This document shows positions 8,700-31,252 of a stretch of 64,000 nucleotides of DNA, piece by piece (within the stretch, counting starts at the first letter, position 1; every line of letters begins with the position of its first letter). The position numbers were made by a program, and so were the translations under genes. The notes beneath the pieces were generated by a model. The model saw nothing but the letters and a program-made list of their open reading frames with translations. It searched no databases and had not been told where the DNA came from. Source of the DNA: a virus; IMG/VR virus record IMGVR_UViG_3300027798_000017, positions 1-64,000 of that record. One strand, given 5' to 3'.

Positions 8700-11600
8700 T
8701 TAATAATCATCAAAGTAACTTCCACCAAATTCAAATGAACCAGGTGCTGTATAAAATACTCCACCAAACTCAGCACCAAACAATGAATTTGTATTTGCCA
8801 CGTATTGTTGTTGTTGTGTTTTATTTGCACGAGAATTATTCTGTTGAAGACATGAGGCTTCCATTCTTGAAGCATATTCTTTTTTAGCAGCTTCATCTCT
8901 TGAAGCATCATTTTTTACTGAGTTATATGCTTCTGCGTAAACACCAGAACAATCAGATTGCCCAGATAAATTACCTCCAGGTGATACACTTGTATCAGGA
9001 CCAAGTGGATTTTTTCCATTTCCTGACCAAGAATAATCTGGTGTAATTCTATTTGCCCATTGTGCTTGTGGATATGCTAGTCTAAATCCATTGTCTTTAA
9101 ACACATTACCCCAACCAGTATTATAAAGCATTGCATTTTGTGCATCTTTTTTATTCAACTGTGCAGCAAATTCCTCTTTACCAACTTCAGAATCAACATC
9201 AAATTGACGTCTACCTTGCATGTTTGCAGCATCGTAGTTGTATTGAAGCTGACCAATTCTACCAAGATAATTATTAACAGTGTCAACATTTTTTTCTTCA
9301 ACACCAGCAATACCTTTGGCAAGTGCATCATAACCTTCACCAGCACCCATTGCATTTGCAACAGTTGGATCTAGTGTGTTCATTGCAAGATCTGCCTTTT
9401 GTTTTGATAATCCTGTTATACCAGCAATTTGTGTAATTGGATTGTTTAAGTCATAACCTGAATAGATTTGTGGCATCTGACGTAAAACAGCATTTGGATG
9501 TGGTACACGTTGTCTTTCACCTGTTGCAAGATTAATTACATCAGGAGTAAACCATGTATCTGGTTGGCGTTTTTTTGGTGGTATAAGTTCATCTTTAGGT
9601 TTTTCTTTAGGAACCTCACAATTTGTATTAGCCAATTCAAGAGTGTCATATTGAGTAGCTTTAACCACCTTATCTCCTGTTGGAGCTGTTGGTGTTTCAC
9701 CTTCTTTATATGAAACAGTTTGAACTGATTTAGTGCCATCTGAATTTTCAACACAATAAAACGCTTGTTTCTCACCAGGTTTTACTTGTGGCTGTGGTGG
9801 TTTTGCTTTGTAACCTAAACGTTCAAATAAAGTAGTATCTGTATTGTAATTATCAATACCAGAAACTTTTCCTTTAATACCAAAAATAGATTCATCGTTT
9901 TGTCCTGATGCATCCCAACTAGCAAAATCTGCATACTTTGGATTATTTTGCAATGTTCTTCTATAAGATATATACGTGCCTTGACCCATATAGTTTTTAG
10001 AAAAATCTAAATCACCTAATCCATTTGGATTTGCCTTTATCAAATCTGCAGCAGTTTTATTTACATATGCTCCTTGTCCAGAAGTACCAGCTATATTTTG
10101 ATCTGCTGAACGTCCTAAGTTAAAAGCTGCAAGTCTTGCATTGTTCTGTTCAAACTGCATCATGTTATTGATGATAGCTTCTTCATCATCTTGAATTTTT
10201 TCTACATCTTTACCATAACTTGCATGATATCCAGCACGTTTTGTTGCATCTCCACTGTACATACCTTTGCCAGCATCATTAACATCTAGTTTATATTGTG
10301 CTGCAATATCTTTTCTTAGCTCTTTGTTAAGACGTATTTGGTTGTTAGAGTTTTGGAAATCTACATATGCTTGTTTATTACCATTCCATTTAAGATCAAC
10401 ATAATCTTGTTCTTCTTTGGTAAGTATGTCAGGTGTAATCCAAGTAGAACTTGCACGTGTAACAGGTGGTTCATGACTTTTGTAAGATTCCCCAGTTTCA
10501 TTATTTCTTCTACCAACAATTTTGGTTTCATCAGTTGCATCACGTATGATTACAATTGTAGTTGGTGGACCTCCATTTGGATCTGTAAAAATCTGTTTGT
10601 ATCTTTTTGTTTTTTGTCCTGTTGATGGAATTGTATAGTCATCTAGATATTCTTCTTTTGGAGGATCACCAGGACCTGTAACAGTACCTGCACCTGCATA
10701 CTTAGGAAGAACAGAGCCACCTCTATTGTATCTTAATTTTCCTTCTTCATCAATAAGTCCACCATATCTAAATTGTTGATTATTAATTCTCATTGTCTGA
10801 CCAACAACTCCACCTGTTTTAAATTTAAAGTCATCATCAGTAAGACCATTTTCAAACTTAGGTTTTTCTTTTGCAGGTGATTTCACTGGTGCAATAACAG
10901 ATTTTTTCTGAGTTTGATTTGAAGTACCAGAACCTGATTGATTTGTAGTTGACCCTGGATTTAGTTTCATTTCTTCATTCAAAATATCAATTATACTTCC
11001 TGTTCCAACATCTTCAGCAGGTTTGATTGCATAAACAACTGGTTTACCAGGTTTAGATTCAGCAGCTGTTGCTTTAGCATTAAGTTCTTTTACTAAATTT
11101 GCATCTGATACAGCCATCTCTGCACCATCTTCTGTGTATTCTGTCCATACAGCTTTACCATTTGCATCTGTGTCTACTCTAAATGTAGAATTAGGTAATG
11201 CATTAACTTTATACTCAGCTTTAAATGTTGTTGCACTAGAAGGTTTATTATCATTTTTATAAAGACTAGTATAAACTTCTTTGACTTTACCTTCTGTATC
11301 AAAACGCTCAAAAGAATCAGACTCACTCATGCCAATTAACCCTTCTGTATTACCACTTCCTCCTGAAGATGTTTGACCTTTAAATGCCAATGGATTTGTT
11401 GCTGACACATTTGTACTTTTTATTCTGTCATGTTGTTGTGTAACATCTTCAACAAATGATATTAAAGTCTCATCATCACCAAAACCAAATTTTTTATCTT
11501 GTATTGGATTACCTAAATCATAATCTAAAAATCCAAGCCATCCTGAAGAATTTGGTGTTACATTAGATTTTTGTACATCATTGTACCATCCAAGATATTG

Positions 11601-13490
11601 CTTGTCATCAAATAATTGTTTTTTTCTTTTGTTATATCTTTCTAGTACTTTTGATAACTGTAATTTTGTAGATATATCAGTTGCAGCATCTCTTGCTTTT
11701 TCAAAATGTGCTATTACATCATTTAATTTTGTTTCTACTGTTTTGACATCATAACTTTTTGTTATAATTTCTTTCTGTTTAGTATTAAGTTTTTTAAGTG
11801 CTTCTTCATATAAAATTGTGTGCATGTCATCAATCTTATCCTGATCTGAAAAAGGCAACCATCCAACATTCCAAGGCACATCAATTTGTTTAATGTCATC
11901 TGCTGCAGCAATCATCATTGCTGGATCTCCTGAAAGTAATGCATTATAATAAGCCTCTCCTGCAGTATACTGTTCAGCATTCTCAGACATGTAAGCATCT
12001 AAGTCAGACTTAGTACCAAATCCAGGTATGTTATCCTTATAAGGATTTTTAAGTTTTGCATCTGCTTCAGCTTTGACTCTTACAGCATCATCCTCTCTTT
12101 TCTTCTTAGCTATTTGCTCTTGAGAAAGTGTACCATATTGTTTATCAATATTATAAATAGCTGTTTCCTCTGCTTGACGATCTTTGGTATAAGTGCCATC
12201 TGAAGTAATACCCATCAATGCTTCATTGATTTCTTTTACTCTTGCTTCTTCTTCTGCTGTAGCATTTCCACTCATTACCTTAGCCATGAGAGGTTCAAGT
12301 TCTTTTGCTTTAGTATAATAACCAGATTTCTGACGCTGCTCTTCAAGTGATTTTAATTGTACTACTTTAGATTTCTCATAATTAGTAGGTGTATTAGTAA
12401 CCTTAAAGTTTTTGTCAAAATTATTTTGAGCTTTTACTTGTGTAGCAGTAGGCTTTTTCTTAGGTTGTGCTGCTGGAGCAGAAGACCATTCTTGTGCATT
12501 GCTTTGAAAACCATGTTCAGGTATTCTAAATATGTCTTTTGTACTTGCATACTGAGATGTAACACATTCTTTTACGTATGGATTCCAAACAAATCCAGAT
12601 TTACATCCTGTCTTTGGAGCACTATTAGGATATTGAAATGCATTTTGCATCATTTCAAACCATCCACCTTCTTCAAATCTAGGTAACATTGATCCACCAT
12701 ATCTACCCATCATCTGAGATGCAACATCATCTGGTGCAACTGCAGGGCCTTCTGGCATCATACCAGCCATAGCATCTTCATCTTCAGACATAGGAATTCC
12801 TTGACCTTGTTGTGGTGGCATCATACCTTCTTGCATTCCCATACCTTGTTCAGGTTGTTGTGGTGCAAACTGTTGAGCCATTTGGTTTGGATCAATACCC
12901 ATGGTTGCTAAAACCTCTTCAGCTATTGCAGGAATTCCATCAGGAAATCCTTTCATGGATTCTTGTATGAATGCTAGTATGCCAAGCTTTTGCTTATTCT
13001 TTTTAAGCATTTCACCAGCAGAACGTTTTGACAATGGATCAGCATTATCATCTTTGAGAATTTCTATGTATGTATTTATTTCATATTTTTTAGAAATCTC
13101 TCCAGGTGTGTATCCTTGTTTTCTAAAAGGTAAATTGAATATTTTTTCTATTACCTCTTTGTCTTTAATAGTAAGTGATTTGGTATCTGAGAAAATAAAT
13201 GAACCTTCAGGAATATTTACAGGTATTCCTCCTTCAGAGTGACGCTTGCCTTGAAAGTGCATAAGCTCCATTGTACCATCATTGTTGACATCACCAATAA
13301 CTGACTCGCCACCTTCAACTTCAATGTTTGCTTGGTCACGTGGAATACCTCCCATTTTGTTATTTACACTAACAGATTGTGGAGCATTTTGCATTACCCT
13401 GTTATTTCTAACAAGACCATAGCCATCTTGCTGACCTGTTTCTTGGTGTGTCCCACCATTTGGAGCTGTTTTTATACGTACTCTATACAT
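8700..13490 (-). CDS. Large cargo protein, 1596 aa, with crAss-type N-terminal EVEGGE...HSEGG...FIFSD domain and xxxGG motifs
   Basis: NIEVEGGESV, GKRHSEGGIPV and SFIFSD are motifs typical of crAss-like cargo proteins; Q/M/P-rich linkers; many xxxGG motifs. Confidence 0.75.
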   Translation of the reverse strand: MYRVRIKTAPNGGTHQETGQQDGYGLVRNNRVMQNAPQSVSVNNKMGGIPRDQANIEVEGGESVIGDVNNDGTMELMHFQGKRHSEGGIPVNIPEGSFIFSDTKSLTIKDKEVIEKIFNLPFRKQGYTPGEISKKYEINTYIEILKDDNADPLSKRSAGEMLKKNKQKLGILAFIQESMKGFPDGIPAIAEEVLATMGIDPNQMAQQFAPQQPEQGMGMQEGMMPPQQGQGIPMSEDEDAMAGMMPEGPAVAPDDVASQMMGRYGGSMLPRFEEGGWFEMMQNAFQYPNSAPKTGCKSGFVWNPYVKECVTSQYASTKDIFRIPEHGFQSNAQEWSSAPAAQPKKKPTATQVKAQNNFDKNFKVTNTPTNYEKSKVVQLKSLEEQRQKSGYYTKAKELEPLMAKVMSGNATAEEEARVKEINEALMGITSDGTYTKDRQAEETAIYNIDKQYGTLSQEQIAKKKREDDAVRVKAEADAKLKNPYKDNIPGFGTKSDLDAYMSENAEQYTAGEAYYNALLSGDPAMMIAAADDIKQIDVPWNVGWLPFSDQDKIDDMHTILYEEALKKLNTKQKEIITKSYDVKTVETKLNDVIAHFEKARDAATDISTKLQLSKVLERYNKRKKQLFDDKQYLGWYNDVQKSNVTPNSSGWLGFLDYDLGNPIQDKKFGFGDDETLISFVEDVTQQHDRIKSTNVSATNPLAFKGQTSSGGSGNTEGLIGMSESDSFERFDTEGKVKEVYTSLYKNDNKPSSATTFKAEYKVNALPNSTFRVDTDANGKAVWTEYTEDGAEMAVSDANLVKELNAKATAAESKPGKPVVYAIKPAEDVGTGSIIDILNEEMKLNPGSTTNQSGSGTSNQTQKKSVIAPVKSPAKEKPKFENGLTDDDFKFKTGGVVGQTMRINNQQFRYGGLIDEEGKLRYNRGGSVLPKYAGAGTVTGPGDPPKEEYLDDYTIPSTGQKTKRYKQIFTDPNGGPPTTIVIIRDATDETKIVGRRNNETGESYKSHEPPVTRASSTWITPDILTKEEQDYVDLKWNGNKQAYVDFQNSNNQIRLNKELRKDIAAQYKLDVNDAGKGMYSGDATKRAGYHASYGKDVEKIQDDEEAIINNMMQFEQNNARLAAFNLGRSADQNIAGTSGQGAYVNKTAADLIKANPNGLGDLDFSKNYMGQGTYISYRRTLQNNPKYADFASWDASGQNDESIFGIKGKVSGIDNYNTDTTLFERLGYKAKPPQPQVKPGEKQAFYCVENSDGTKSVQTVSYKEGETPTAPTGDKVVKATQYDTLELANTNCEVPKEKPKDELIPPKKRQPDTWFTPDVINLATGERQRVPHPNAVLRQMPQIYSGYDLNNPITQIAGITGLSKQKADLAMNTLDPTVANAMGAGEGYDALAKGIAGVEEKNVDTVNNYLGRIGQLQYNYDAANMQGRRQFDVDSEVGKEEFAAQLNKKDAQNAMLYNTGWGNVFKDNGFRLAYPQAQWANRITPDYSWSGNGKNPLGPDTSVSPGGNLSGQSDCSGVYAEAYNSVKNDASRDEAAKKEYASRMEASCLQQNNSRANKTQQQQYVANTNSLFGAEFGGVFYTAPGSFEFGGSYFDDY

Positions 13491-13529
13491 ATTCTAAAAT
13501 TTTAAAAAGGGACATGTACTACCACATCC

Positions 13530-13549
13530 CTCATTAGAAGTTACAAAAA
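13530..13549 (-). promoter_or_regulatory. Putative late-promoter motif TTTTTGTAACTTCTAATGAG
   Basis: One of five similar intergenic motifs upstream of minus-strand late genes. Confidence 0.5.
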
Positions 13550-13578
13550 TATTCTGATTAATCCAATCCTCCATACCA

Positions 13579-13586
13579 CAAATATA
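13579..13586 (-). promoter_or_regulatory. Bacteroidota sigma-A -7 element TATATTTG
   Basis: Matches TAnnTTTG in the intergenic gap upstream of the 1596-aa gene. Confidence 0.4.
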
Positions 13587-13592
13587 GTAAAT

Positions 13593-16370
13593 CTAATCTA
13601 AAAACTCTACTTCACCACCCATTGCTATAATAGCCTGCAGTGCTTGTGGAGATAAATTATATGTTCCACCTTTTCTGTATATGCTTCCACCAAACTTTGC
13701 ATTAAGAGTTGTTTGCCAATCTTGAGTTGCACCTTGATTTGCTAAGTCATAGTTAGAACCTTGATTTGCATTTGTTTGCCAAGAACCATACATATTAATT
13801 GGATTGACAGCAGCGTACTCCATTGAGTTACCAACCTGTTGTCTTTTCTTTCCAATTTCATTTATTCGTTTTCTACCATTTATTTCATCTAAACCAGCAT
13901 TCCATCCAGATAAACCTGAATACATGTTTTGTGCCACACGCGCACCTAATGCATCTCCACGATTAACAGTTACTTCTTTTGTGTCAACCATGTTTGCATT
14001 TGGATTTGCACTTAATGCGTTGTTAGCATTGTTGGTCATGTTTAATGGTTGAGTTGTTGCATTTGTCTGATTTCCAGTTGTGTTGTTAAAACTTGCAACA
14101 TAGTCATTGTATGGTTGTATGTCTTCTGGTTTTAATGGAAAAGTTTTTGATTGTACCTGCGCCCATTCTTGTTGTGTGTATGGAGATGTCTCATTATTTA
14201 TTGCTCCACCTGGTCCATACATTGGCATAGATATTCTTAACTTACGTCTGTTGTCAGTAAATGGATCCCATTCACCACCATCTCTTTTTACTACTGCAGG
14301 ATCTTCATCAGAAGGATTAACTCTATTCATAAAAGCATTTGACTCATCTGAATCACTAAGATTTGGATCCCATGCAGCATCACGCTTAAATTGATTTCGT
14401 TGTCTCATTTTACCAAAGAATCCAGCATCATCATAATCTTGTTGTAAATCTTCTTTTGTGCCATACTTATTTTCTCCAAACAATGCAGGACCTTGTGCTC
14501 TAAAATCTTTCTTTGTTTTTCCAGTAATGTCAAGCATGTCATTCATTCTATCAGTATCACCATACTTATCCATGATTGGATTACCATCTGCGTCTGTTCC
14601 CATTTGTCTTTCATGGTTACGTAATGGATTATCATATGAAGCAAGTTGTCCTTGTCTATTAACACCTACAGGCTGACCATACTTGTCAGTAACACCTTTT
14701 CCATCTTTAGTACTTTGCATCATCATACCTTTTGGTATGTCTTCATTTACTCCACTATCAGCTATATTACCTGAAGCATTCTGAGATCCATTGTTACCTT
14801 GGTTCTGAGAATCATCTCTACCAGCATTTCTAAATGAACGTTTGTTATCATACTCAAACCTGTTCCCTTTATCATCATAGACTGTACGCTTGTTACCAGA
14901 AAATATTTTCTTAGCCCCAAGTGCTGCACTTGATACAGCACCTGTTGCACCTAGCAACATTTGAAGATATGGACCAAAGGCTCCAGTAGCACCAAGTGTT
15001 TGTGCACTACCTAAATTACTTCCTACTGCCAATGCTTTGTTTACCCAGTTGTTATCAAGATTTGCAATTTTATTTTTATCAGTTCTTACAATGTATGGAC
15101 TGTTTGTCAATCTTGGATCTATTGGTGCATCATTATTATTGTTATTATTATTCGCAGCATTATCTTTCTCAGGCATAGCCATTGTCATTTTATCCTGCAT
15201 CCCTGTGACATAGTTATTTAACTGTAATAAATTTGGACCATGACCACCTGCTATACCAGGACCATAACCACTTGGTGTACCTATATTATTTGGATCATCA
15301 ACAGACATTGTTGCTTTACTTTGTAAATCCTTTACATATTGATTAACATCCATTGCATTAAATTTACCTGTAAATCCACCTCCACCAAGAAATCTAGTAA
15401 GACCACCAAAACGTGCGTTTCCTGTAGTATTAAGATTTGGTACAGGTGTTACATTAGGTACTGTTGGTGTTACTGGTTTTTGTTGCCATGGCATTTGTCC
15501 ATCCATCATATTCTGGTGTACAACACCCATAGCAGCCATTGAGTTATCAAAACCTTGTTGTCTTTTTGTTTGATTTGCATTCAGTAAATTGTCATAATAA
15601 GAACCTTCTGCATTACGATTTTTATCTTGCAAGTTTGCAGTTCGCATTATGTTATCATTATAATTATCAGTTCCTTGTTTAACTGCATTTTGTGTTTGAA
15701 CAGGATTTCCTGTACCAAGGTTTACTGGACCTGCACCTGCTTGCATCATAGTAGCAGTGGTTGCTGTTGGAATACAAGTACCTGTAGCATCACTCCATAT
15801 AAGACCATCAGGACAAGTACCACCCATATTCATTCTGCGCAATCTTCTCATTGAACCACCAAAACGTCCTTCTTGCATTTCTGCATCAGCCATATTTGAC
15901 TGATCTCCTTGTTGATTCATTGCCATCATTGATGGATCCATTCCAGCACCAGGACCAGCTTGATTCATCGTTCCCATTTGTTGCTGCTGCGCCATTTGTT
16001 GTTGTCGCGCTTGCATTTCCATTTGACGCTCTTGTTCTGAAGTGGAGTAATCACCTTCAGATATTGTTTTATCAAACTCTTGCTTGGCAACTAAAATCAA
16101 CTCATCAGCTTGGTCTGCCTTTACTCCTGAGTCAACAAGAGTTTTCCTCAAGATTCTTTCACTTGTACCTTTGCTTAACTGATCTAACAGAAACGTCATA
16201 AGTTGTTTTGCACTTGCATCAAGTGTTGTAGGTTGGCGCTTTTGACCTACTTCTGCAATAGGTCCCATTGGAGATTGACCCTCCATGTTTTCTCCACCAT
16301 CTGCGTATCTAACTTTGCCACCACACTTGTAGCAAGGTCCACCTGTCATATATTCTAACATGTTATTCAT
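13593..16370 (-). CDS. Low-complexity cargo protein, 925 aa, ~11 xxxGG motifs
   Basis: N/Q/M/G-rich with a hydrophobic Gly/Ala segment; C-terminal YRKGGTYNLS...AMGGEVEFLD module; ends in TAG. Confidence 0.7.
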   Translation of the reverse strand: MNNMLEYMTGGPCYKCGGKVRYADGGENMEGQSPMGPIAEVGQKRQPTTLDASAKQLMTFLLDQLSKGTSERILRKTLVDSGVKADQADELILVAKQEFDKTISEGDYSTSEQERQMEMQARQQQMAQQQQMGTMNQAGPGAGMDPSMMAMNQQGDQSNMADAEMQEGRFGGSMRRLRRMNMGGTCPDGLIWSDATGTCIPTATTATMMQAGAGPVNLGTGNPVQTQNAVKQGTDNYNDNIMRTANLQDKNRNAEGSYYDNLLNANQTKRQQGFDNSMAAMGVVHQNMMDGQMPWQQKPVTPTVPNVTPVPNLNTTGNARFGGLTRFLGGGGFTGKFNAMDVNQYVKDLQSKATMSVDDPNNIGTPSGYGPGIAGGHGPNLLQLNNYVTGMQDKMTMAMPEKDNAANNNNNNNDAPIDPRLTNSPYIVRTDKNKIANLDNNWVNKALAVGSNLGSAQTLGATGAFGPYLQMLLGATGAVSSAALGAKKIFSGNKRTVYDDKGNRFEYDNKRSFRNAGRDDSQNQGNNGSQNASGNIADSGVNEDIPKGMMMQSTKDGKGVTDKYGQPVGVNRQGQLASYDNPLRNHERQMGTDADGNPIMDKYGDTDRMNDMLDITGKTKKDFRAQGPALFGENKYGTKEDLQQDYDDAGFFGKMRQRNQFKRDAAWDPNLSDSDESNAFMNRVNPSDEDPAVVKRDGGEWDPFTDNRRKLRISMPMYGPGGAINNETSPYTQQEWAQVQSKTFPLKPEDIQPYNDYVASFNNTTGNQTNATTQPLNMTNNANNALSANPNANMVDTKEVTVNRGDALGARVAQNMYSGLSGWNAGLDEINGRKRINEIGKKRQQVGNSMEYAAVNPINMYGSWQTNANQGSNYDLANQGATQDWQTTLNAKFGGSIYRKGGTYNLSPQALQAIIAMGGEVEFLD

Positions 16371-19300
16371 TTTCTGATAAATTTACTTAAAGTTTTTATA
16401 TTACCACCATACTTGTTTTCTGGTGTTTGTTCTTGTTCAGAATTTTGCATCAACATCATACCAGCACCACCAATTCCAATTGGCACAACTCCTGGCATTT
16501 TATTTAAAACGTCTGACATTATTTTAAAGTTTCCTGATTTATTTTGCATTATCTCATATATACGCAATGGATATTTATTACCAACCTCTGCCATATATTT
16601 TGTATAATGATTTGTTAATATTTCAGGTGTTATAGTTTGATACAAATCATCTATCATACCACGCTGTAACATGTCTGCGCGAACCTCTTCCATAAATGCA
16701 GTTTTTTCTTGACCCTTACTACCTGTTCTCCAGTACTTACTCATTCTTTTAAAAGGATCAATCCCAGTCATAATTTTATTATAGAAGTTTGAAGCACCTT
16801 TTTCATTTGAAAACAAATTGGAATTTAATGATGGACTATTTGGTTTTAAACTTATCTCAGAAAGCATCTCATCTAAATTTGTTTTTGCACCTTGTTGAAA
16901 ATAATGACCAAATTCATGTTCTACTATTCTTGCTAAATCATCTGCTGTTAACTCTGGACTAGCTAAAATTGAATATATATCTGATGGTGATGCATCTTGA
17001 TATTTTGAAGTATTTTGTTTTGTCAAGTTAATTGCTTCTGCATCACTTCCCATATTTCCTGTAAGATCTCTTAATCTCATCATGTGAGCATTGAGTGTTT
17101 TTCCTTCAATTGCTTCTTCACCAAACAGTAATTCACCTTCTAATTTACTTGCTTGTTTTTTTAATCTATCAAGTTGCAATGGATTAGCATTAGGGTTTGA
17201 CTCTAAATTTTTAATTCTTTGAGTTATTAACGCAAACTCTTCTTCCATTGAACTTTGCATTGCATTTTCGTTTACCATGTTTGCAAATCCATTTTTAAAA
17301 TCATCATATGTCATATTTTTCATATGAGGATTACTTGCAATAAGTTCTTCAATTCTTTTTTGACCTTCAGGTGAATTAATTTTTAGAAATCTGTCATGTC
17401 TAAGTTCTTCAATAATTGAAGCAGTAGCTTTATTTTTTTCTGCATCATAAGGCATTATCATTTGATCAGATGTTCCTGACAAATCAGTAGCACCAGAAGT
17501 TCCTGCTTCTAATTCAGTTGCAGTTGTATTAGAATTATTAAAAGATTTTATATTTCTTGGTTGTACAACATAATCAGTTCCCCCTCTTTCATTAGAAAAC
17601 TTTCCTACAACTTTCATATCAAAACCAGAACCCGTCACTTCTAATTCATTAACTGGTCCTTGAGCTTGTGAAAAGGATTGTTCTGCTTCTCCAATTAATT
17701 TTTGTATTGCTTCTTCTTTATTAGCAGGATCTGCATACAGTCTAAGTCTTTCCGCTCTTGCTGCATTATGACCTTTTGCAAATTCTGTTGCTTGATCTAG
17801 TGTAAATACATCTTCTGGTCCAGTTCTCTGTTTACCTACAAGTTCTTCTGGTGTTAAATCTTTATCCCATTCACTTGGTTTTAAATATGATTCTGCTTTT
17901 TTATTATATATTGCTTCAGCTTGTGCTCGTACTTCTTCAGGAGATAGTCGCTGTGTTCCATAGTAATTATCACCAACTTTTGAAGATTGATCAATTTCTG
18001 TTTGCTTACTAAAATCTTTTACAGTCAGTTCTTCTTCAGCTATATTACCATAATATCCTTCTTCAATTGGCTCATATCTGTTTTTAATAAAATTACCTTC
18101 AACCTTTTTAGCATTTTTTCCACTTAACACAATTCTATCTTTACCCCAATTTGGTGCATCCTTATATCCAGTATTACCAGTTGAAAAAGATAATGGTCTA
18201 TTTTGATTTGTTATACCTGTAACTTGACCTGCTTCATTTGTTGTTACGCCCTCAAATGCTGATGGACTAGAAAATGTTCTTGTCAAAACAGCATCTTGTG
18301 GAAATGCTAATTCTGCTTTACTGATTAATTTATTAAATGCATCTTGTTGTGGACCAGGTTTTAAAAATGGAAAAGAACTATATTGATACTCTTTCAACAT
18401 TGCCTTTTCTACAGAAGTAAAATTATCAGATTGCATAATCTTATCAAACATTGCTGTTGATTTTTCAGCATCCATTCCAGCAGCTGGATTTTTCCATGCA
18501 TTAACATAATTATTCATAAATGAATCTCCTGTTGCAACATCGTTGTATGCTCCTTTCACACCTTGTATTGTTCTAGGTATAATCTTACTGCCACGCATTT
18601 CTAATGCCAAAGGTGTACCCATTGCTGCACCCATGAATAAATTTTTATTACCCTCTTTCCAATTACCTTCACTGTATGCCTTATATGCTTCAGGAAAATA
18701 ATGGGTAGCTGCCTGATATCCACCAACCCCAGTTAACAAGTTTCCTATAGTTGCTTTTTTAGCAAGATTTTGAACAAGTAGTGGAGAATTTTGTAACGCT
18801 GTTGATCCAGCTTTATTTAATAATGTTGCTGGACTAACTTTCATCAAATTATTCATTCCTTTCCATCCTACTTTTGCACCTTTTATCATTGGGATAATTG
18901 TAGCAAAATCAAGTATAGCATCACCATAATCACCTTGTTGTAAATTCTGTCCAGCACTTGAAGCTGCGCGAAAAGGATTGATATAATTCAAAGTGTTATT
19001 TAAAACATTCTCATCTCTATTTAACATCTTATCATAAAATCTTGCATCTTCTCCAAAGTTTTCTGGATCAGTAGACTCAAGTCCTTGAAATGCTAAAGGT
19101 CTTTCAAATTCTAAAAGTCCTCTTTCCAATGTGGTTATTGGATCAGATGCTAGTGCATTAACAGTGTTTATACCTTTCATGTACCAAGGCATTTCATCCC
19201 ATGTTTTCTGTTCTCTTTTTTGAAAGTCTTTATACTTTCTTTCTTCAAGTGTTTTAAAAAAGTCTGGGTTTGTTCTAATTTGTTCAAGAGCTAGTTCTTC

Positions 19301-19960
19301 CATTGTCAAAGGTCCACCAGATCTATGTGAATTTTCTTCTGATAAATATTGATCTCTTAACTTAGGAAAATGTTTAGCAAGATCTCCACTATTTACAACT
19401 TGGCTTGCTGCAGCTTTTTGTCTTTTTGTTATATTGTTCCAATCTTGAAAATTTTCATCAACTGTGCGAATCTTTGGAAACGCATCTGAATTAATGTTCA
19501 CACGCGTGTTGTCAGAACCAACATTTCTTAGATGTAGACCTCTTTCTATTTCTTGTTGTTCTAATTCGTTTTCTTTACGAGCTTGCTCATCTTCTTTTTG
19601 TTTTTGTACTTGAAGTTGTTTTAATAAACTAGCATTTTCAACTGTTGGTGCATTGTTGGATACGTGGTTAATCTTATTTTGTGTAGGAATCAAACGATGA
19701 CTCAAGATGCTTGAATACTCTTGAGCTTTCTTTGCAGTTGCTGCATCTTGCTCTACTTTATATGTTGTGGTTTCTTTTAAATAAGAATTTTTTTCCTTAT
19801 ACATTTTCTCAAGAACATCAGAATCATATACTGCATTTCCATTAATAGATGGATGATTGTATTGAGTATACACCCACTTATTGTAAGTAGGATTAAAGAA
19901 CTGCCATCCGCCATTTCCATCACGTTTGTATCTTACACCACTATAATTATACTCTTTCAT
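16367..19960 (-). CDS. Multidomain cargo/effector protein, 1197 aa: pre-toxin-like region + ADP-ribosyltransferase-like + zincin (HEFGH)
   Basis: Motifs GDYGDAILDFATIIP; VLTR...SFSTG...ELEV; HEFGH...EKTAFMEE; C-terminal KYGG. Confidence 0.65.
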   Translation of the reverse strand: MKEYNYSGVRYKRDGNGGWQFFNPTYNKWVYTQYNHPSINGNAVYDSDVLEKMYKEKNSYLKETTTYKVEQDAATAKKAQEYSSILSHRLIPTQNKINHVSNNAPTVENASLLKQLQVQKQKEDEQARKENELEQQEIERGLHLRNVGSDNTRVNINSDAFPKIRTVDENFQDWNNITKRQKAAASQVVNSGDLAKHFPKLRDQYLSEENSHRSGGPLTMEELALEQIRTNPDFFKTLEERKYKDFQKREQKTWDEMPWYMKGINTVNALASDPITTLERGLLEFERPLAFQGLESTDPENFGEDARFYDKMLNRDENVLNNTLNYINPFRAASSAGQNLQQGDYGDAILDFATIIPMIKGAKVGWKGMNNLMKVSPATLLNKAGSTALQNSPLLVQNLAKKATIGNLLTGVGGYQAATHYFPEAYKAYSEGNWKEGNKNLFMGAAMGTPLALEMRGSKIIPRTIQGVKGAYNDVATGDSFMNNYVNAWKNPAAGMDAEKSTAMFDKIMQSDNFTSVEKAMLKEYQYSSFPFLKPGPQQDAFNKLISKAELAFPQDAVLTRTFSSPSAFEGVTTNEAGQVTGITNQNRPLSFSTGNTGYKDAPNWGKDRIVLSGKNAKKVEGNFIKNRYEPIEEGYYGNIAEEELTVKDFSKQTEIDQSSKVGDNYYGTQRLSPEEVRAQAEAIYNKKAESYLKPSEWDKDLTPEELVGKQRTGPEDVFTLDQATEFAKGHNAARAERLRLYADPANKEEAIQKLIGEAEQSFSQAQGPVNELEVTGSGFDMKVVGKFSNERGGTDYVVQPRNIKSFNNSNTTATELEAGTSGATDLSGTSDQMIMPYDAEKNKATASIIEELRHDRFLKINSPEGQKRIEELIASNPHMKNMTYDDFKNGFANMVNENAMQSSMEEEFALITQRIKNLESNPNANPLQLDRLKKQASKLEGELLFGEEAIEGKTLNAHMMRLRDLTGNMGSDAEAINLTKQNTSKYQDASPSDIYSILASPELTADDLARIVEHEFGHYFQQGAKTNLDEMLSEISLKPNSPSLNSNLFSNEKGASNFYNKIMTGIDPFKRMSKYWRTGSKGQEKTAFMEEVRADMLQRGMIDDLYQTITPEILTNHYTKYMAEVGNKYPLRIYEIMQNKSGNFKIMSDVLNKMPGVVPIGIGGAGMMLMQNSEQEQTPENKYGGNIKTLSKFIRK

Positions 19961-22869
19961 TGTCTGAAAAATTTGTTTAGCAAAGTTACCTTTTCAAAAT
20001 TTGATTGTCCTCCAAATCTTGCAGTTTGTGTTTGAAACTCTGTGTTAGTGTTTGAATCTTTTTGAACTATATCATTAAACATTCTAATAGTATCTTCTTT
20101 AGTAAAAGGAGTTACTATATCACGAATTTGCATTCTAGTATTCTCATCCAAATCTGGATTCTTCATTAAATCTACAAGCTTTTTATAATGATCTTGTGTA
20201 AAGTTTTCATTTACAGGATCATAAAGACCAAGCTCTTGTAATTTTTTAGCAGCTATATCTTTTCTTGCTTTTAATTCTGTTAATTGAGTGTAGTATTCTT
20301 CACCCCCAGTTTCTGGATTTTCTTTTGGATAATGTGAAGACCAAATAGTATGCTCTAAATTATCAGAAAAAGAATCTGATCTTGGTTTAGACATATCTCT
20401 ATAATTATAGTCATATGCTCCTGTTATACCAGCTCTCCCTTTTGTAGATGCATGTGATCTTTCATGTAAATCAAAATCTTTATTCCAATCTTTAAAATAC
20501 AATTTATGACCAACACTACTTAATTCATCAGCTTGACTTTTATAATCATCAAGTAAAGACTGGTATTTACCTCTTATCTCTTTATTATATTTTCCTTTAT
20601 CAGGAACTGAGTTTAGCATATTTTGAACTTCATTCATATTGCTATTATGATCCCCTAGGTCATAAGGAGGTTTATAATATGCGCCAGCATTCAATGACTC
20701 AAATGACTCAGGTGGGTTACTTGAATCACCCATTCCTACAGTTTGTAGATTTTGAATCATTTGTTCTTTATATAACTCTGCTTCTTCCTGTACTTCTTCA
20801 AGAGGCTTGCCAACCATTCTTGCATATCTTTCTGCAAACAATGGACTATTTACCATTGATTTTAAAAAGTCTGTGTTTTCTTTTGCAACATTAGGTTCAT
20901 AATTTGCAGGAATACACTGTCCATTTTCATTTCTTATGTAACCATCAGGACAAGGTTCTCCACCTTCTGCATATTGAATTAAACCACCATCTCTTAACCA
21001 TCTTGGGTGTTTATGTTTTTCTATTGGCTCACAAGGACAATTCTCACAATATCTTCTTTCTCCTTCAGGACATTCTTTTTTAAGTTTTTCCTTTTTTTCT
21101 ACAACTTCTTCTTCTTGACTTTTACGTTCTGCATATTTTTCCTCATCTTCTATGTCTTGAATTTTTTTACTTCTTTTATTATTTTTAAACTTAATGTCAT
21201 CAATATCTTTTTTAATACCAACATTTGCATACACTGTAGACCCCCATTTTATACCAGGATCTTTTTCTGGTGTTACCATTTGTTGATATTGACCTGACAC
21301 TTGATCTTGACCACCTGTCCATTCTTGATCAGTTTGTTTTTGAACATTTTTACCTTTTACAGGATCAAATTGAATTCCTGCTTCTCCATACAAATATGAA
21401 CCTCTTGATAATCTATCTAACCATCTTGGCTGATATTTTCCTTGTATTCTTGCACCATAGTTTAATCCTGCTCCACCTCCCTCAGCACCACCGCCTCCAC
21501 CAAATCCACCATAAAGATCTACATGACCAACACCATATCCTGGTTTTACTAATTTATTACCCCATGGAGTAATTGCATATCTAGCACCTCCTGAAAGAGA
21601 AACCAATGGTCCAGTATGCATATTATAATCAAGAGCCGCTTCTATATGTGGTATGAATTTTTTGTCTTGTAGTGCATTTTCAAAATCAAACTTTATTCCT
21701 GCAGATGGTTTATATTGAGCATTATCTCCAATTACTTGACTATAAGGCATTCCTACATAAGCATTGTATAACCATCCTCTTCCTGCTTCTTTTTTAGCAT
21801 TTCTATTTTTACTAAGAGACCCTTCTATACCAAATACAGCAGCTGGATCTTGTTTAAATACAGGTATATTATTAAAATAACTTTGATTTGTATTTACAGC
21901 TCCTGTAAAATTATTTTGATAAGCAGGGTTAAAATAAACATTGGCTCCTTTTTTTGTCAACCAATCAGGTGGATCTGCAGAAACACCACCTGGTGCATAC
22001 TGAGTTAAACCACCTTGTTTGTAAAATGTAGGATTCTCACGTGATTGTTTTTCTAATTGTTCTATTTCATCACCATATTCTTCTCTTATGTAACGTTCTT
22101 TGTCAAATCTATTTACATAAGCATAATCACGACCTTTGCCTGATGCATTTGGCTGAAAATCTTCCCAAAGTCTATGAACACCAACATGTGCTGGCATACC
22201 ATTACTGTCAAACCATCTTGATTTTTTATTATCATCATAACCCATAAAGGTCATTGCATGCGAATTATCAGCACCTTTAAAATTAACAACATCACCAACT
22301 TTCAAATTACCTTTTTCAATGTTGTCAAATGTTGGATCACTAAATTTTCCAACTCTTGTAAAAGGCACGTCTCCTCTATCAACAGCATTTATAAATCCAA
22401 TGTTTGAATTAAAATGTACAGGATTAAAATTTGACATGTAATCTTTTGTTTCAGGTGTGCATCGCCAGCCTAAGCCTGCTACATACATGCAACTAGGATC
22501 AACAAAATTTGTCACGCCATGTTTTTTCCAAAGTTCACGTGCGTCTGATCCTGGTTTACCTGGTATAATATACTCTTTGTAATTACCAGTTTTTGGGTCT
22601 ACCCATAGTTCATCAGAAAGTGCATGTTCAAATTTAGCAACTTTGTTAGGAATGCTATCTGCCTTATCATATATTGCTTGAATCTCATCAGTCTCACGAC
22701 ATTGACCATCTTCACAATCTGGATCTGGAACACATTTGCCATTTACAAGACTATAACCAAAAGGACAATCTGCTTCTTTTAAGCCTCCTGTTTTATAAAT
22801 AGGTTTTTGTTTCTTGGAAATCTCTCCAAGCATTTCATACATTCTATCTTGAGTAAATCTTGCCATCAC
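19957..22869 (-). CDS. Multidomain cargo protein, 970 aa: NlpC/P60-like + beta-barrel-like + zincin (HERSH)
   Basis: SCMYV...VGDVV...SHAM; Gly/aromatic alternating strands; LHERSH...TELKAR; domains separated by xxxGG pairs. Confidence 0.65.
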   Translation of the reverse strand: MMARFTQDRMYEMLGEISKKQKPIYKTGGLKEADCPFGYSLVNGKCVPDPDCEDGQCRETDEIQAIYDKADSIPNKVAKFEHALSDELWVDPKTGNYKEYIIPGKPGSDARELWKKHGVTNFVDPSCMYVAGLGWRCTPETKDYMSNFNPVHFNSNIGFINAVDRGDVPFTRVGKFSDPTFDNIEKGNLKVGDVVNFKGADNSHAMTFMGYDDNKKSRWFDSNGMPAHVGVHRLWEDFQPNASGKGRDYAYVNRFDKERYIREEYGDEIEQLEKQSRENPTFYKQGGLTQYAPGGVSADPPDWLTKKGANVYFNPAYQNNFTGAVNTNQSYFNNIPVFKQDPAAVFGIEGSLSKNRNAKKEAGRGWLYNAYVGMPYSQVIGDNAQYKPSAGIKFDFENALQDKKFIPHIEAALDYNMHTGPLVSLSGGARYAITPWGNKLVKPGYGVGHVDLYGGFGGGGGAEGGGAGLNYGARIQGKYQPRWLDRLSRGSYLYGEAGIQFDPVKGKNVQKQTDQEWTGGQDQVSGQYQQMVTPEKDPGIKWGSTVYANVGIKKDIDDIKFKNNKRSKKIQDIEDEEKYAERKSQEEEVVEKKEKLKKECPEGERRYCENCPCEPIEKHKHPRWLRDGGLIQYAEGGEPCPDGYIRNENGQCIPANYEPNVAKENTDFLKSMVNSPLFAERYARMVGKPLEEVQEEAELYKEQMIQNLQTVGMGDSSNPPESFESLNAGAYYKPPYDLGDHNSNMNEVQNMLNSVPDKGKYNKEIRGKYQSLLDDYKSQADELSSVGHKLYFKDWNKDFDLHERSHASTKGRAGITGAYDYNYRDMSKPRSDSFSDNLEHTIWSSHYPKENPETGGEEYYTQLTELKARKDIAAKKLQELGLYDPVNENFTQDHYKKLVDLMKNPDLDENTRMQIRDIVTPFTKEDTIRMFNDIVQKDSNTNTEFQTQTARFGGQSNFEKVTLLNKFFRQ

Positions 22870-22875
22870 TTAAAG

Positions 22876-25125
22876 TTAAAAAAAATCAGGCATATATCCA
22901 AAACTACCACCATGCTTTGCATACTGTATGTCATCATTTAGTCTATCTGGCTTTACTGGTGTAGATCTATTTGCCATAAGATTAAACATGTTTGTCAGAC
23001 CTTTTGTATCTTTTGAAAGTCTGTATAACTTATACAAGTCATCACTAAAATTTGGACTACCTTTTGTAAACATTCCAGATTGTTGTGCTTGTGATATCAT
23101 GCTTTCAACATCATCTTCTGTATACACTTTTGTAGGATCCATTTGAAATGCATTACGCCAATTCATTACATATGAATGCATATTCCCTTTGCCTTCTGGT
23201 GTTTGACCACTTGAATACATATAATCATTATATAGTTCTTCTTCCAAGTCTTTATCATTTTTTACAGCATCAGCCATTGGACTTGTTTCAAGAAAATCTT
23301 CATATGATTTCATATTTTCATTAGCAATTCTTTGATGTACTGGCTCAACAAATTTTTCAGCATCTCCTGCTGTTGACTCATTAGTATACTCATGCAATTG
23401 AGTTTGAGCATTTTCAAATGGATTTTGTCTTATTCTTTCTGCAATCTCAATTATTGGATTACTTTTTTTTGTAGCTTCTCTATATGCCCCTAATGCATCA
23501 GGATTATTATCAATCATTTCAGTATATTGAATTGGAACATTAGATGTTTCCATTCTCTGATTGATCATTGGTAATACTTTGTTTAACCACTTACCATGTG
23601 CTTCACTTTCATCCAATGTTCCAAAATTTGGATCATTTACAAGTTCAGGTCTACGTTGATACCAGTCAGTTAAATAGTCCTTTCCATAAGTATCTGGAAC
23701 TGTTGGTACACATGTTTGTAGTTCATCACTCCATTCATGATTTTCTGGACAATCTGATTCACCACCTTCTAAATACTTGCGTTTAATTTTGCGTTCTTGT
23801 TGCAACATTTCCTTTGTAGGTTCTTTACCACTACCACGATTTGCTCTAATGTTATCCCATAGACCACGTTGTGAGTAACTTCCATCTGCACGCTTAATCA
23901 TCCCACCACGCTTCATTTCAACTTCATTATTAGTTGAACCACATTTGTGACATGTTGTTGGATCTGAACCAGCATCTGACATTTTCCAAGACCATCCACA
24001 TTTACCACATTTTATAGTTGGATCAGTTTCACCACCATCGCGCTGCTTTTCAGTACCACTTTTTAAATTATCAAAATTAGTTCCATTGCGTATCATCATT
24101 TCAAGATTATGTTTTCTCATTGAATCAGATGATTGCTGCATCAAGTTGTTTATTAAATTCCCACTAGAAACATTACTTCCTTCTGGTGGAACAGTTAAGT
24201 ATTTACTACCTACTGCATAATAACCTTTTGCACGCTCATTATCAGAACCATCATAAATAGAACTACCATCAGAACCTACAACTGAATATGTAGCAGGATT
24301 TGTAAAATTAACATTCATGTTTCTATCAGAAATTTGTTTTGGCATTTCAACACATTGTCTTCCATCCCAATATTGACCATCTGGACATGCCATCATTTCA
24401 CCACCTTCTTCCCACGTTGATCTTGCATATGCTCTGAAGTATGGATTGTTTTTAAGATTAGTAGCATGTCTGGCATAAAAAGCATCTTTCCCATTTTTTG
24501 AATTACCACGTTCACCCATGTTTGGATCACCAAAATATTTTTTAGTTCCATCAGGTCCAGTTACAACATGTGTTTTACCTTTACGATCATTTGATCTTCT
24601 TACAGTATACCCACCTTTTCCATATTCAGGAACTTCAAAATCACCTCCATACTCCATGTTATTAAGAATTTGATTTTGAACATATTCTGGTAATGCATTA
24701 AAACCTGGATTGTCAATTGTACCACCTTCTTCTTTTGCAAAGTTTCTAGCAAAGTTTGCTTTCTTAACCATTGCTGGAGAATACTCTTCTTTGTTACTAA
24801 GTATATGAGCAGCAGCTTGTTGTATAGACATACCCATGCGCGTAGCCTGAGCTTTAAATGTACCTTTCTTGCGTGGATCTAAATGTAGCCCACCATGTTT
24901 TGCTTGTTGATAGTAATCATCAAATGACGCATCTTCAGGATTCATAGGAGGCATCTGTTGTTCCATTCCTGGTATAAACTGACCAAGTGCACTAGCTTGA
25001 TTTTGCATTAGTGCATCTTTAAGTTGCTGCTTAATCATTTTCTCTTGCTGAACTTGAGATTGTCTTTGACCAAAGTTTGTCAGAACTTCAGCTATTGTCC
25101 ATTTTTTATCATTTGATTCTTTCAT
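22876..25125 (-). CDS. Modular cargo protein, 749 aa, nine xxxGG motifs and a degenerate zincin (HEYTN)
   Basis: Small basic modules, a CxxC...CxxC ribbon and Cys-hairpins, each bounded by GG motifs. Confidence 0.7.
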   Translation of the reverse strand: MKESNDKKWTIAEVLTNFGQRQSQVQQEKMIKQQLKDALMQNQASALGQFIPGMEQQMPPMNPEDASFDDYYQQAKHGGLHLDPRKKGTFKAQATRMGMSIQQAAAHILSNKEEYSPAMVKKANFARNFAKEEGGTIDNPGFNALPEYVQNQILNNMEYGGDFEVPEYGKGGYTVRRSNDRKGKTHVVTGPDGTKKYFGDPNMGERGNSKNGKDAFYARHATNLKNNPYFRAYARSTWEEGGEMMACPDGQYWDGRQCVEMPKQISDRNMNVNFTNPATYSVVGSDGSSIYDGSDNERAKGYYAVGSKYLTVPPEGSNVSSGNLINNLMQQSSDSMRKHNLEMMIRNGTNFDNLKSGTEKQRDGGETDPTIKCGKCGWSWKMSDAGSDPTTCHKCGSTNNEVEMKRGGMIKRADGSYSQRGLWDNIRANRGSGKEPTKEMLQQERKIKRKYLEGGESDCPENHEWSDELQTCVPTVPDTYGKDYLTDWYQRRPELVNDPNFGTLDESEAHGKWLNKVLPMINQRMETSNVPIQYTEMIDNNPDALGAYREATKKSNPIIEIAERIRQNPFENAQTQLHEYTNESTAGDAEKFVEPVHQRIANENMKSYEDFLETSPMADAVKNDKDLEEELYNDYMYSSGQTPEGKGNMHSYVMNWRNAFQMDPTKVYTEDDVESMISQAQQSGMFTKGSPNFSDDLYKLYRLSKDTKGLTNMFNLMANRSTPVKPDRLNDDIQYAKHGGSFGYMPDFF

Positions 25126-30082: not shown

Positions 30083-31252
30083 TTATGAGTAGTATGGATT
30101 ATTTGGCATATGATTTTTAAACATATCATAGAATCGTGAGTACTGTGCTTTTCTATTTGTTTCCCAAACTTGTTTCATTTCACCAAAGTCAGGAGTATTA
30201 ATAAATCCAAGTGCTTTGTTTCTTGCTTCACGTAATTTTCCTGACATCAACTGCATCAACTGCACTGTGTTCTCACCTGCCTGAGCAAGGTTCTCATAAA
30301 TACGTTCTTTCAATGCATACTCATAATATTCATCAGCATATGGATGTCTAAGAACCATAAGTTCTCCTGAATCAGTTTCCATTACACTTTCATACATTAT
30401 TGCAACTTCTCCTTCTTTAAAGTTTGTTTCTAAGAAACCATTTTTTAAATATACTGAGTAATAGTTGCGTGAGTTTACATCAAGACAGTCTGCAGATACA
30501 GATTGATTTTTTACAATTTGTAATCTAAATAGATTTTTAAACTTACGCGTTCTACCATTACATCTATTAACCACAACTGGTTGACCATTTTCATGTGTAA
30601 AGGATGTCACATTGCAAGGTTTAGTATCTTGTACACATGGGTTTGGTGGAATAGGACAAGGATCTGGTGGACAATGTTCACCATTGCTTGACTTAGAACC
30701 CATAATTATTACTCTTACACTAGGCTGTATACCTACATACTCTGAAACAAGTTGTATTGTGTCTTCGTCTATCACTACAACGTCAAAGTTTAGTAAACTA
30801 TGATCCTGTGCCAATGCTTGAACAATAACATAATTGGTTCCTAAGTTATGTGTTATTGTATTTATACCTGGAACAATTGATATTATCTGAGTGTACTGCT
30901 CTACCATATTCTTATAAATTTCAAATTGTGCTTCATAAATTCCATCTGCTACACCTTGCTGATATGTTTTATAAGACCATAAAGGTGGATTGTGTGCTTC
31001 AATTGAGCCAGTGCAAAGTAACGCATGATTTAATACATAAAAGTCTGATGGAAGTTTTGCGCGATGATTTGTAACTTCAAGCATTCTTACGCGATTAGGA
31101 TTTATTTTTAATCCTAAATCATAGTTTACACGTTGAACTACTTTGATTAGTGTTTGGTCATCAATCATTCCTTCAAGGTCAAACGTTCTTAAGTCTATCT
31201 TAACACTGTCAAGAAGTTCCTCAAATGTTCTATATTGTAATTCTGCTTTCAT
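30083..31252 (-). CDS. Tail tubular/ring protein with inserted THNLG beta-domain, 389 aa
   Basis: AKLPSDF, NGFLETNFKEG and YYEYALK motifs of crAss ring proteins; adjacent to the muzzle gene. Confidence 0.7.
   Translation of the reverse strand: MKAELQYRTFEELLDSVKIDLRTFDLEGMIDDQTLIKVVQRVNYDLGLKINPNRVRMLEVTNHRAKLPSDFYVLNHALLCTGSIEAHNPPLWSYKTYQQGVADGIYEAQFEIYKNMVEQYTQIISIVPGINTITHNLGTNYVIVQALAQDHSLLNFDVVVIDEDTIQLVSEYVGIQPSVRVIIMGSKSSNGEHCPPDPCPIPPNPCVQDTKPCNVTSFTHENGQPVVVNRCNGRTRKFKNLFRLQIVKNQSVSADCLDVNSRNYYSVYLKNGFLETNFKEGEVAIMYESVMETDSGELMVLRHPYADEYYEYALKERIYENLAQAGENTVQLMQLMSGKLREARNKALGFINTPDFGEMKQVWETNRKAQYSRFYDMFKNHMPNNPYYS

Follow-up and report, generated by a model that had tools for sequence, protein, structure and literature searches.

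The 64,000-nucleotide window analysed here covers positions 1 to 64,000 of a virus record of 123,252 bp (IMG/VR record IMGVR_UViG_3300027798_000017; CheckV completeness 97%) and, judged by its genes, derives from a divergent, uncultured crassvirus. Between positions 8700 and 25125 it carries five consecutive open reading frames (ORFs), all on the minus strand, whose coordinates and lengths agree with those given in an earlier note made from the DNA letters alone. From the upper end downwards they encode proteins of 749 (22876..25125), 970 (19957..22869), 1197 (16367..19960), 925 (13593..16370) and 1596 (8700..13490) amino acids (aa), none of which has a Pfam (E <= 0.01) or PHROGs family. A short peptide with an aromatic residue shortly before Gly-Gly recurs in these proteins, and we refer to it as a seam. 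It is enriched in the set, lies at linkers and at recombination joints, is conserved, and is found again in two cultured relatives.

The earlier note had estimated about 35 motifs of the xxxGG type in the five genes. By our count [YFMWAK]xxGG occurs 32 times in their 5437 aa and 30 times in the background formed by all remaining ORFs of the genome, 34,103 aa in total (Fisher 1.6e-12), and none of 2000 within-protein, composition-preserving shuffles attained 32 (mean 11.4). An aromatic residue at positions -3 to -1 before GG gives nearly the same picture (32 against 31 elsewhere, Fisher 2.8e-12; shuffle mean 10.0, 0/2000 attaining 32). Because plain GG is found just 60 times against 42.3 in shuffles (4/2000 attain 60; 114 elsewhere in the genome, Fisher 3.5e-12), a glycine-rich background accounts for only part of the signal. 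The signal is uneven. When aromatic-GG was tested gene by gene in the 50 ORFs that are 200 aa or longer, with 1000 shuffles each, the 925-aa protein had 10 observed against 2.0 expected (0/1000 shuffles), the 970-aa protein 10 against 2.5 (1/1000), the 1596-aa protein 7 against 2.9 (32/1000) and the 749-aa protein 4 against 1.3 (44/1000), whereas the 1197-aa protein has at most one and is not enriched. The enrichment is carried mainly by the 925-, 970- and 1596-aa proteins, and beyond the five genes no ORF of the 50 does better than 49/1000 shuffles. A motif had also been noticed within about 20 residues of every C-terminus, and the last GG indeed lies 9, 16, 11, 6 and 6 residues from the ends of the 749-, 970-, 1197-, 925- and 1596-aa proteins, with the first GG at residues 78, 28, 17, 10 and 12, respectively.

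The 970-aa protein is built, from its N-terminus, of a leader, a seam, module A, a doubled seam, module B, another doubled seam, module C, a last seam and a C-terminal tail. Its AlphaFold model (37-row alignment) has a mean predicted local distance difference test (pLDDT) of 58, and the stretches below 50 include residues 1-28, 279-301, 590-639 and 938-970, which correspond to the leader, the two doubled seams and the C-terminal tail. The doubled seams are FYKQGG-LTQYAPGG (residues 282-295; 21985..22026, minus strand) and WLRDGG-LIQYAEGG (residues 624-637; 20959..21000, minus strand), and they contain the doublets YKQGG-LTQ-YAPGG and LRDGG-LIQ-YAEGG just as first quoted. Homology to other proteins breaks off at the same places, with 24 BLAST breakpoints at residues 252-304 and 12 at residues 625-637. 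G287 is the sole invariant column among 37 aligned sequences, and HPRWL..GG is invariant in 16 sequences. The proposal that motifs mark domain borders is thus supported in the modelled protein by three independent kinds of evidence: the low-confidence stretches, the homology breakpoints and the exact junctions in relatives described below.

What do the seams separate? Module A (residues 30-281; 22027..22782, minus strand) is predicted to consist of a Cys hairpin and a papain-like Cys/His domain of the CHAP/NlpC-P60 type. Modelled with a pLDDT of 68 and a predicted template-modelling score of 0.69, with the stretch around the Cys below pLDDT 50, it aligned best in VIA-align to the CHAP endolysin 8tw1 (Z 8.1, root-mean-square deviation 3.7, 126 aligned), a Z of about 8 being in a range that the tool flags as possibly a common arrangement. 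Many NlpC/P60 chains follow at Z 7.8-6, the 42 chains at Z >= 5 are mostly CHAP or NlpC/P60, and C39 structures score 5.2 (6mpz), 5.1 (7s5j) and 4.5 (5xe8). Foldseek gave no row at E <= 0.001 for this module, and its profile gave nothing at E <= 10 against PDB sequences; across 19 sequences it has invariant Cys and His columns. Module A is likely, on this structural likeness, a virion-borne cell-wall (peptidoglycan) hydrolase that carries no Pfam or PHROGs annotation. Module B (residues 296-623; 21001..21984, minus strand) is modelled as an all-beta, Gly/aromatic-rich domain in which some 11 long strands run antiparallel and one loop has the sequence GGFGGGGGAEGGGAG; a helix and a Cys cluster come after this domain. 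Its Foldseek rows are nearly all porins or outer-membrane barrels, all of them weak (best 8jto, E 6.1e-3; none <= 0.001), and its family is tiny, with 23 representatives at E <= 1e-3 among 1.84 billion. As a lead from the model, it is possibly a beta-barrel of the outer-membrane type which, if real, could be part of a channel through the host outer membrane. Module C (residues 638-949; 20023..20958, minus strand) opens with a Cys hairpin and continues into a predicted helical domain with HERSH (residues 802-806, nt 20452-20466), which lies inside a low-confidence stretch (776-866). The terminal seam ARFGG and a 16-residue tail ending in ..LLNKFFRQ close the protein (19960..20022, minus strand). 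A tblastn search with the whole protein against 50,697 annotated phage records found no match.

Comparison with relatives shows what happens at the seams. Related loci were found in IMG/VR scans (one and two) and in a JGI metagenome scan (two), and the comparative set is mainly 36 + 17 + 23 database proteins without genomic context. The 36 database homologues of the 970-aa protein mostly have about one third of it in common, at 45-83% identity, within proteins of 575-1636 aa that have other content. Among 52 related proteins we collected 1701 internal ends of BLAST high-scoring segment pairs, of which 35% are no more than 3 residues away from a GG run and 55% no more than 10, compared with 7% and 17% of random positions, respectively; these ends are mutually dependent, and the percentages describe a trend rather than a test statistic. 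The end of module B, HPRWLR[DE]GG, continues in three ways: in this phage another seam and then module C come next, in the homologue P0014 the N-module of the 1197-aa protein, and in P0016 a C-tail directly. Relative to the 55%-identical relative L001, the 749-aa protein (aligned with L001_8204_9991) has about 107 extra residues (~136-242; 24400..24720, minus strand) with both edges at ..EEGG seams, the BLAST pieces being 1-146 and 224-749. L001 in turn carries 61 additional residues in its counterpart of the 925-aa protein, inserted between the seams that lie at residues 171 and 183 of the latter. In the 1197-aa protein the first 469 and the last 48 residues are retained and the middle is replaced. 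Of 45 aligned GG sites L001 preserves 34, against about 50% expected from general glycine identity. Gene boundaries differ as well, since the corresponding regions of related loci are split into 596/958/1046/1047/1205+, 952/1481/1497+, 1547/797+ and 2074/731+ aa. The gain and loss of modules between GG motifs that the earlier note proposed to look for in relatives is therefore seen as exchange and re-ordering at GG, both in the BLAST breakpoints and in the L001 insertions and deletions, whose edges coincide with seams. Read in this way, the cargo genes appear as strings of swappable modules exchanged at GG seams.

The consensus of the seam was drawn from 444 unique sites in the 52 related cargo proteins, many of them from related, non-independent sequences. 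Around the invariant GG, numbered as for a cut after it, Tyr is enriched at P5 (4.6-fold), Lys, Ala or Arg at P4 and Leu at P8, and an aromatic residue occupies P5-P3 in 260 of the 444 sites, against 28% expected. Downstream, Leu or Ile at P1'/P2' and another GG at P7'-P8' reflect the frequent doubling of seams with a period of 8 residues. Information is greater on the N-terminal side of GG; P1' and P2' carry some, with the non-independence of the sites applying to this profile as well. A second flavour of seam reads [RK]-[FY]-GG. The DNA of the sites has only GGT-GG in common and seam glycines use the same codons as other glycines, so that selection acts on the peptide and not on a recombination signal. 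Such a signal in the DNA at the seams had been considered, and it is ruled out by the same observation.

At their ends the proteins fall into a few classes. N-leaders are exemplified by MA.FTQDRMYEMLGEISKKQKP.YK.GG; C-tails of class C1 have [FY]GG...L.KF[FI]R[KRQ] at the very end, and those of class C2 read GG..Y.LGDEVDE.TM..LKKLGYTFEKI. Leaders and tails combine freely with differing internal modules, and the C1 tail, to which ..LLNKFFRQ belongs, closes at least 10 homologues that differ in module content. We infer that leaders and tails are address labels for loading or ejection. Right after several seams stands a hairpin of the form C-P-x-G-Y...G-x-C-[IV]-P (in the 970-aa protein at residues 35-48 and 640-654, in the 925-aa protein at 186-201), and the 749-aa protein has a CGKC...CHKC pair. 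From these patterns, disulfide- or metal-stapled mini-modules seem to open many modules.

Of the cultured crassviruses, crAss001 offers virion structures (Bayfield et al., 2023, PMC10172136; PDB 7QOG, 7QOI, 7QOJ, 7QOL, 8CKB). Its cargo protein 1 (C1), gp45, has 9 aromatic-GG motifs against 2.9 in shuffles (18/5000 attain 9), while gp46, gp47, gp49 and gp50 are not enriched. Cellulophaga phage phi17:2 gp041, annotated as 'virion structural protein', has 9 against 1.6 (0/1000 shuffles). According to the text of the structural paper (PMC10172136), the pieces of gp45 resolved by cryo-electron microscopy are residues 214-245 in the tail barrel and 425-552 at the portal, and they are bound to the portal wing and to the ring proteins R1/R2. 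On these published boundaries, seams bracket the resolved pieces: S-A-Y-G-G at 206-210 ends four residues before the piece 214-245, further seams come after the two pieces, at 260-265 and 559-563, and A-F-G-G at 425-428 stands at the start of the modelled portal-bound piece. Because the modelled chain, as described there, runs through A-F-G-G, this seam would be uncut in the virion. Homology of gp45 or gp46 was found neither by phmmer against 58 related proteins nor by BLASTP (best E 4.2), and a phmmer search of PDB sequences with the N-terminal 200 residues of the 1596-aa protein did not return gp45. Since gp45 and gp041 are both enriched without clear homology, aromatic-GG is a shared property of the crass-type cargo protein 1, which the present clade has expanded to five genes. 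Leptolyngbya phage Lbo-JY46 (PP438436.1) has in the cargo position a 674-aa protein (27334-29358, minus strand) that ends in a C2-type tail (..QQGGYNLGEEIDLSPEEVAKLIELGYDFEVV), and its 495-aa neighbour has an N-leader like those of the relatives of the window; the address labels would for this reason be older than the dense seams. In phi17:2, the gene beside the seam-rich gp041, gp042 ('tail protein', 35151-37370, minus strand), has two HExxH motifs (HEFTH, HELNH).

The remaining four proteins vary in how they are punctuated. The 749-aa protein has nine GG sites; no HExxH was found in it, although a zincin-like domain had been placed there. The 1197-aa protein has few seams, with a GG at residue 17 and KYGG 11 residues from the end. 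Its candidate zincin-like module (residues 838-1166; 16463..17449, minus strand) contains HEFGH (1015-1019, nt 16904-16918) and is followed by a hydrophobic Gly-rich stretch and a C1 tail. In the family alignment of 16 sequences H1015 never varies, conservation of E1016 and H1019 reaches at least 90%, and among nine aligned sequences that we inspected, eight keep HE..H (P0026 is without it). Pfam gave no family for the protein and its 17 homologues, no peptidase or LPD Pfam model matched the HExxH modules, and an ESM Atlas match to LPD23 scored just 0.83, the HExxH fold being without a confident model. Residues ~514-800 of the same protein have conserved columns compatible with the R / S / E-x-E pattern of ADP-ribosyltransferases, a resemblance in the family alignment that we take as a lead only. 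The 925-aa protein is the densest of the five, with three GG in its first 26 and three in its last 32 residues; low-complexity stretches lie between its seams (Q/M-rich at 110-165, an N-run near 405-413). In the 1596-aa protein either end bears seams. An N-terminal region of it with ..GKRHSEGGIPVNIPEGSFIFSD.. is similar to residues 345-454 of phi17:2 gp041 (phmmer 14.5 bits in an 8-sequence database), again only as a lead; a link of the 1596-aa protein to the portal-binding domain of gp45 was dropped, the resemblance being at the level of motifs.

Where the five genes lie in the genome points to what they encode. Crassvirus hallmark families were found among the 87 ORFs scanned (Pfam Crass_capsid 1.5e-32, CrAss_Ring_2 1.3e-18, CrAss_Ring_1 9.3e-8), PHROGs matches include portal (4.4e-88) and major head protein, and the closest cultured capsid is that of Lbo-JY46 (28% identity). 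The minus strand carries almost every gene to about 60 kb, in an order that leads from head and tail genes over a 1651-aa structural gene to the 749-, 970-, 1197-, 925- and 1596-aa genes, and then to an 895-aa gene and an open-ended 2000-aa ORF. ORFs of 4019 and 2028 aa span the record ends and match crAss001 gp47 and gp50 (E 2.7e-10, 1.5e-8) and gp49 (1e-3), respectively, the proteins associated with the virion RNA polymerase. The 1651-aa gene (25125..30080, minus strand) matches phrog_37948, 'virion structural protein' (6.1e-52), in tblastn finds structural proteins of Lbo-JY46, Cellulophaga phi17:2/phi4:1 and csAssE-Sib, and is colinear in 4/4 related loci. Its place in the gene order is that of the crAss001 muzzle gene gp44, and it stands outside the seam system (4 motifs against 2.8 expected; 323/1000 shuffles reach 4). 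For crAss001, the structural paper gives the order muzzle gp44, cargo gp45 and gp46, then gp47-gp50 (PMC10172136, text), and the gene order around the cargo position matches in Lbo-JY46, phi17:2 and crAss001. Since the five genes lie between the muzzle-position gene and the virion-RNA-polymerase genes, as in crAss001, they occupy the cargo position, and this synteny suggests that the five proteins are probably carried in the virion; the label 'virion structural protein' on phi17:2 gp041, which bears the motif, gives indirect support.

Two further observations concern the surroundings. The 4019-aa ORF (genome positions 110491-122550, minus strand, outside the window) has gp47-like and gp50-like regions in one chain, so that two of the crAss001 proteins associated with the virion RNA polymerase appear to be fused here. 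Four ORFs contain a Peptidase_S74 intramolecular-chaperone domain (best 2.7e-14), in the regions 30083-46455 (minus strand) and genome 99792-103739 (minus strand), where many ORFs have tail-fibre PHROGs; together they suggest a multi-fibre adsorption apparatus.

How might seams serve such proteins? We put a probability of roughly 45% on a reading whereby they stay uncut and act as hinges or handles where exchangeable cargo modules meet. In this view the products of the five genes are cargo (ejection) proteins in a divergent crassvirus, and each protein is a string of independently folding modules traded between phages. A module would bring its own end-peptides, with an aromatic residue or Met one to three positions before the invariant Gly-Gly, and the whole protein would be capped by one of the few conserved N-leaders and C-tails. 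Conceivably, GG is a flexible hinge and the nearby aromatic residue an anchor, and the two together would let modules be packed, unfolded and threaded successively through portal and tail. The seam may also double as a handle on inner virion parts. We infer both the hinge or handle role itself and the presence of the five proteins in the virion.

Several considerations weigh against this picture. A plain hinge needs no conserved aromatic residue, no strict GG, no doubling at 8 residues and no copy 6-30 residues from every terminus, and these same features therefore speak for recognition by a putative partner. The evidence that a seam stays uncut comes from one seam in one distant phage, as worded in the text of the paper and not as seen in coordinates, and it is silent on cutting after ejection. 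Virion presence rests on synteny, with no sequence homology found to gp45, and the 1197-aa protein is hardly punctuated.

Alternatively, seams could be protease cutting sites. The five proteins would then be polyproteins, loaded via their leaders and tails and cut after GG, in the head or after ejection, by the zincin-like (HExxH) modules of the cargo itself. We consider this rather unlikely, though several observations speak for it. GG is invariant and the determinants around it lie mainly on its N-terminal side; in the model the seams fall in disordered, accessible linkers; and four of the proteins have a seam 10-30 residues from the N-terminus, and all five have one 6-16 residues from the C-terminus, which recalls removable targeting peptides. 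Candidate enzymes are at hand as well, for HExxH is found in 24 of the 52 related cargo proteins and is conserved in the family of the 1197-aa C-module, and a ..HEAFH.. (zincin-like) region is common to the 4019-aa ORF and crAss001 gp47. The survey of polyvalent proteins in PMC5512222 predicts, in broad terms, autoprocessing by zincin-like domains and cites the processing of phage P1 DdrB; it also names N4 virion RNA polymerase, ArdC and TraC1 as bearing such domains and yet being delivered uncut. No HExxH module matched a Pfam peptidase family and the one in the 970-aa protein falls within a stretch modelled at low confidence, and the C-tails and N-leaders are mini-domains under strong conservation. 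No zincin is known to require Gly-Gly at P2-P1. Searches for other proteases came back empty: Pfam Peptidase_C48, C5, C39, S78 and S77 are all without a match at E <= 1 in the whole 123-kb genome, with clan CE represented in this six-frame search by C48 and C5, these two models only. A co-fold of residues 838-1150 of the 1197-aa protein and Zn with residues 268-307 of the 970-aa protein scored 0.00; run without controls, it counts neither way. The suggestion of the earlier note that GG is a maturation cleavage site is thus not supported, with no GG-specific protease family detected by Pfam and, going by the published text, a gp45 seam that lies uncut within the modelled chain.

An elaboration of the cutting hypothesis, which we hold to be slightly less probable again, is a processing code, in which crassviruses would bring a small number of addressed polyproteins into the head and packaged zincins, including the HEAFH domain conserved in the giant protein associated with the virion RNA polymerase, would cut after GG, there or following ejection, and so release a mix of wall-breaching parts and host-modifying enzymes that is specific to the phage. 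If true, it would be a phage counterpart of the core maturation of African swine fever virus (ASFV) and adenovirus with a different class of protease.

A third proposal, that seams are a multivalent packaging or cohesion tag, we regard as improbable. Aromatic-GG 'stickers' would bind the capsid inner face, the portal, the tail rings or each other, so that the modules they flank are co-loaded into the procapsid. Encapsulin cargo-loading peptides and the repeated shell-binding motifs of carboxysome CsoS2 are analogues. The motif is repeated, often doubled, set in disordered segments, and common to unrelated modules and different genes, and the crAss001 pieces beside seams are, as far as the published description goes, bound to portal wing and R1/R2, with A-F-G-G ordered at the start of the portal-bound piece. 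A sticker, however, should be strict in its aromatic residue, whereas it is GG that is strict and the aromatic residue that varies from -1 to -3; moreover, the positions of seams are conserved, not just their numbers. That the seams have no specific function at all, being inherited glycine-rich linkers caught by a loose pattern, would fit a plain-GG excess of only 1.4-fold over composition, the unenriched 1197-aa and marginal 749- and 1596-aa proteins and the many counts from related sequences, yet it is very improbable given that no shuffle in 2000 attained the aromatic-GG count, that the motif recurs in gp45 and gp041 without detectable homology, and that seams are kept more often than other glycines.

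Whether cut, bound or merely flexible, the junction peptide offers a simple rule by which huge unannotated cargo genes can be divided into modules for separate folding and assay, and whole-module exchange at seams explains how cargo genes diversify. In the human gut, crassviruses rank with the most abundant phages; marine and freshwater samples contain them too, and their injected proteins are largely uncharacterised. The plug-and-play cargo that the earlier note had in mind fits the motif at borders, the exchange at GG and the crassvirus cargo position. Its term 'effector' suits a few modules, such as the SET domain present in 6 of 35 homologues, while several others look like parts for breaching the envelope. 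A corollary is that, should the seam turn out to serve for loading or for cutting, it could also help to bring proteins of choice into the heads of phages in laboratory strains.

Literature searches aimed at proteolysis of crAss-like cargo proteins, at crAss001 gp45 (titles and abstract openings among the papers listed) and at Lbo-JY46 gave no published account of a junction motif, and a review of the Crassvirales (PMC10136315) does not mention protease, peptidase or proteolysis. On this basis the seam motif is apparently undescribed. Several known systems nevertheless invite comparison. ASFV pp220 and pp62 are cut by pS273R, and adenovirus precursors by adenain, at GG-X, the enzymes being clan-CE cysteine proteases. 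As there, virion-internal proteins are punctuated here by x-x-G-G sites; unlike there, a clan-CE protease is undetected (Pfam C48, C5), and cleavage, demonstrated in those viruses, is predicted at most. Double-glycine leaders, processed by C39 peptidases, likewise have hydrophobic positions three residues apart before GG, and a papain-fold module is present in our protein set. Their hydrophobic positions are P4/P7, whereas here they are P5/P8; there is no Pfam C39 match, and module A is nearer to CHAP/NlpC-P60 (Z 8.1) than to C39 (Z 5.2-4.5). The internal proteins of T4 and the inner-body proteins of phiKZ-like phages carry capsid-targeting peptides that the prohead protease removes at L/I-x-E or S/A/G-x-E. 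Features in common are short peptides at the ends of packaged proteins and a head that takes up many cargo proteins, while no S77 or S78 protease match was found here by Pfam.

The nearest counterpart in a cultured phage is crAss001 gp45. It has the same gene position, after a large tail-end structural gene and before the virion-RNA-polymerase genes, and the same aromatic-GG motif, whose seams, on the boundaries given in the paper, bracket the pieces of gp45 that are ordered in the crAss001 virion; for that virion the available text describes no such motif and no proteolysis (PMC10172136). The differences are of scale and content: gp45 is a single protein of 842 aa, whereas here there are five genes and 5437 aa without detectable homology to it, with recognisable enzyme-like modules and extensive shuffling of modules between relatives.

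The comparison with polyvalent proteins (Iyer, Burroughs, Anand, de Souza and Aravind, 2017, PMC5512222) concerns the cargo as a whole. As described in that work, these are large, probably injected proteins that combine unrelated domains. Several unrelated domains likewise share one chain here, since the 970-aa protein unites a papain-fold, a beta-rich and a helical HExxH module, to which homologues add SET. The zincin-like HExxH is the commonest recurring element, joined by SET, the ADP-ribosyltransferase-like pattern and the wall-hydrolase-like module. No LPD Pfam family matches here, and PMC5512222, in the part at hand, defines no junction peptide and does not mention crAss. What the present proteins add to the polyvalent scheme is a conserved seam, classes of N-leaders and classes of C-tails.

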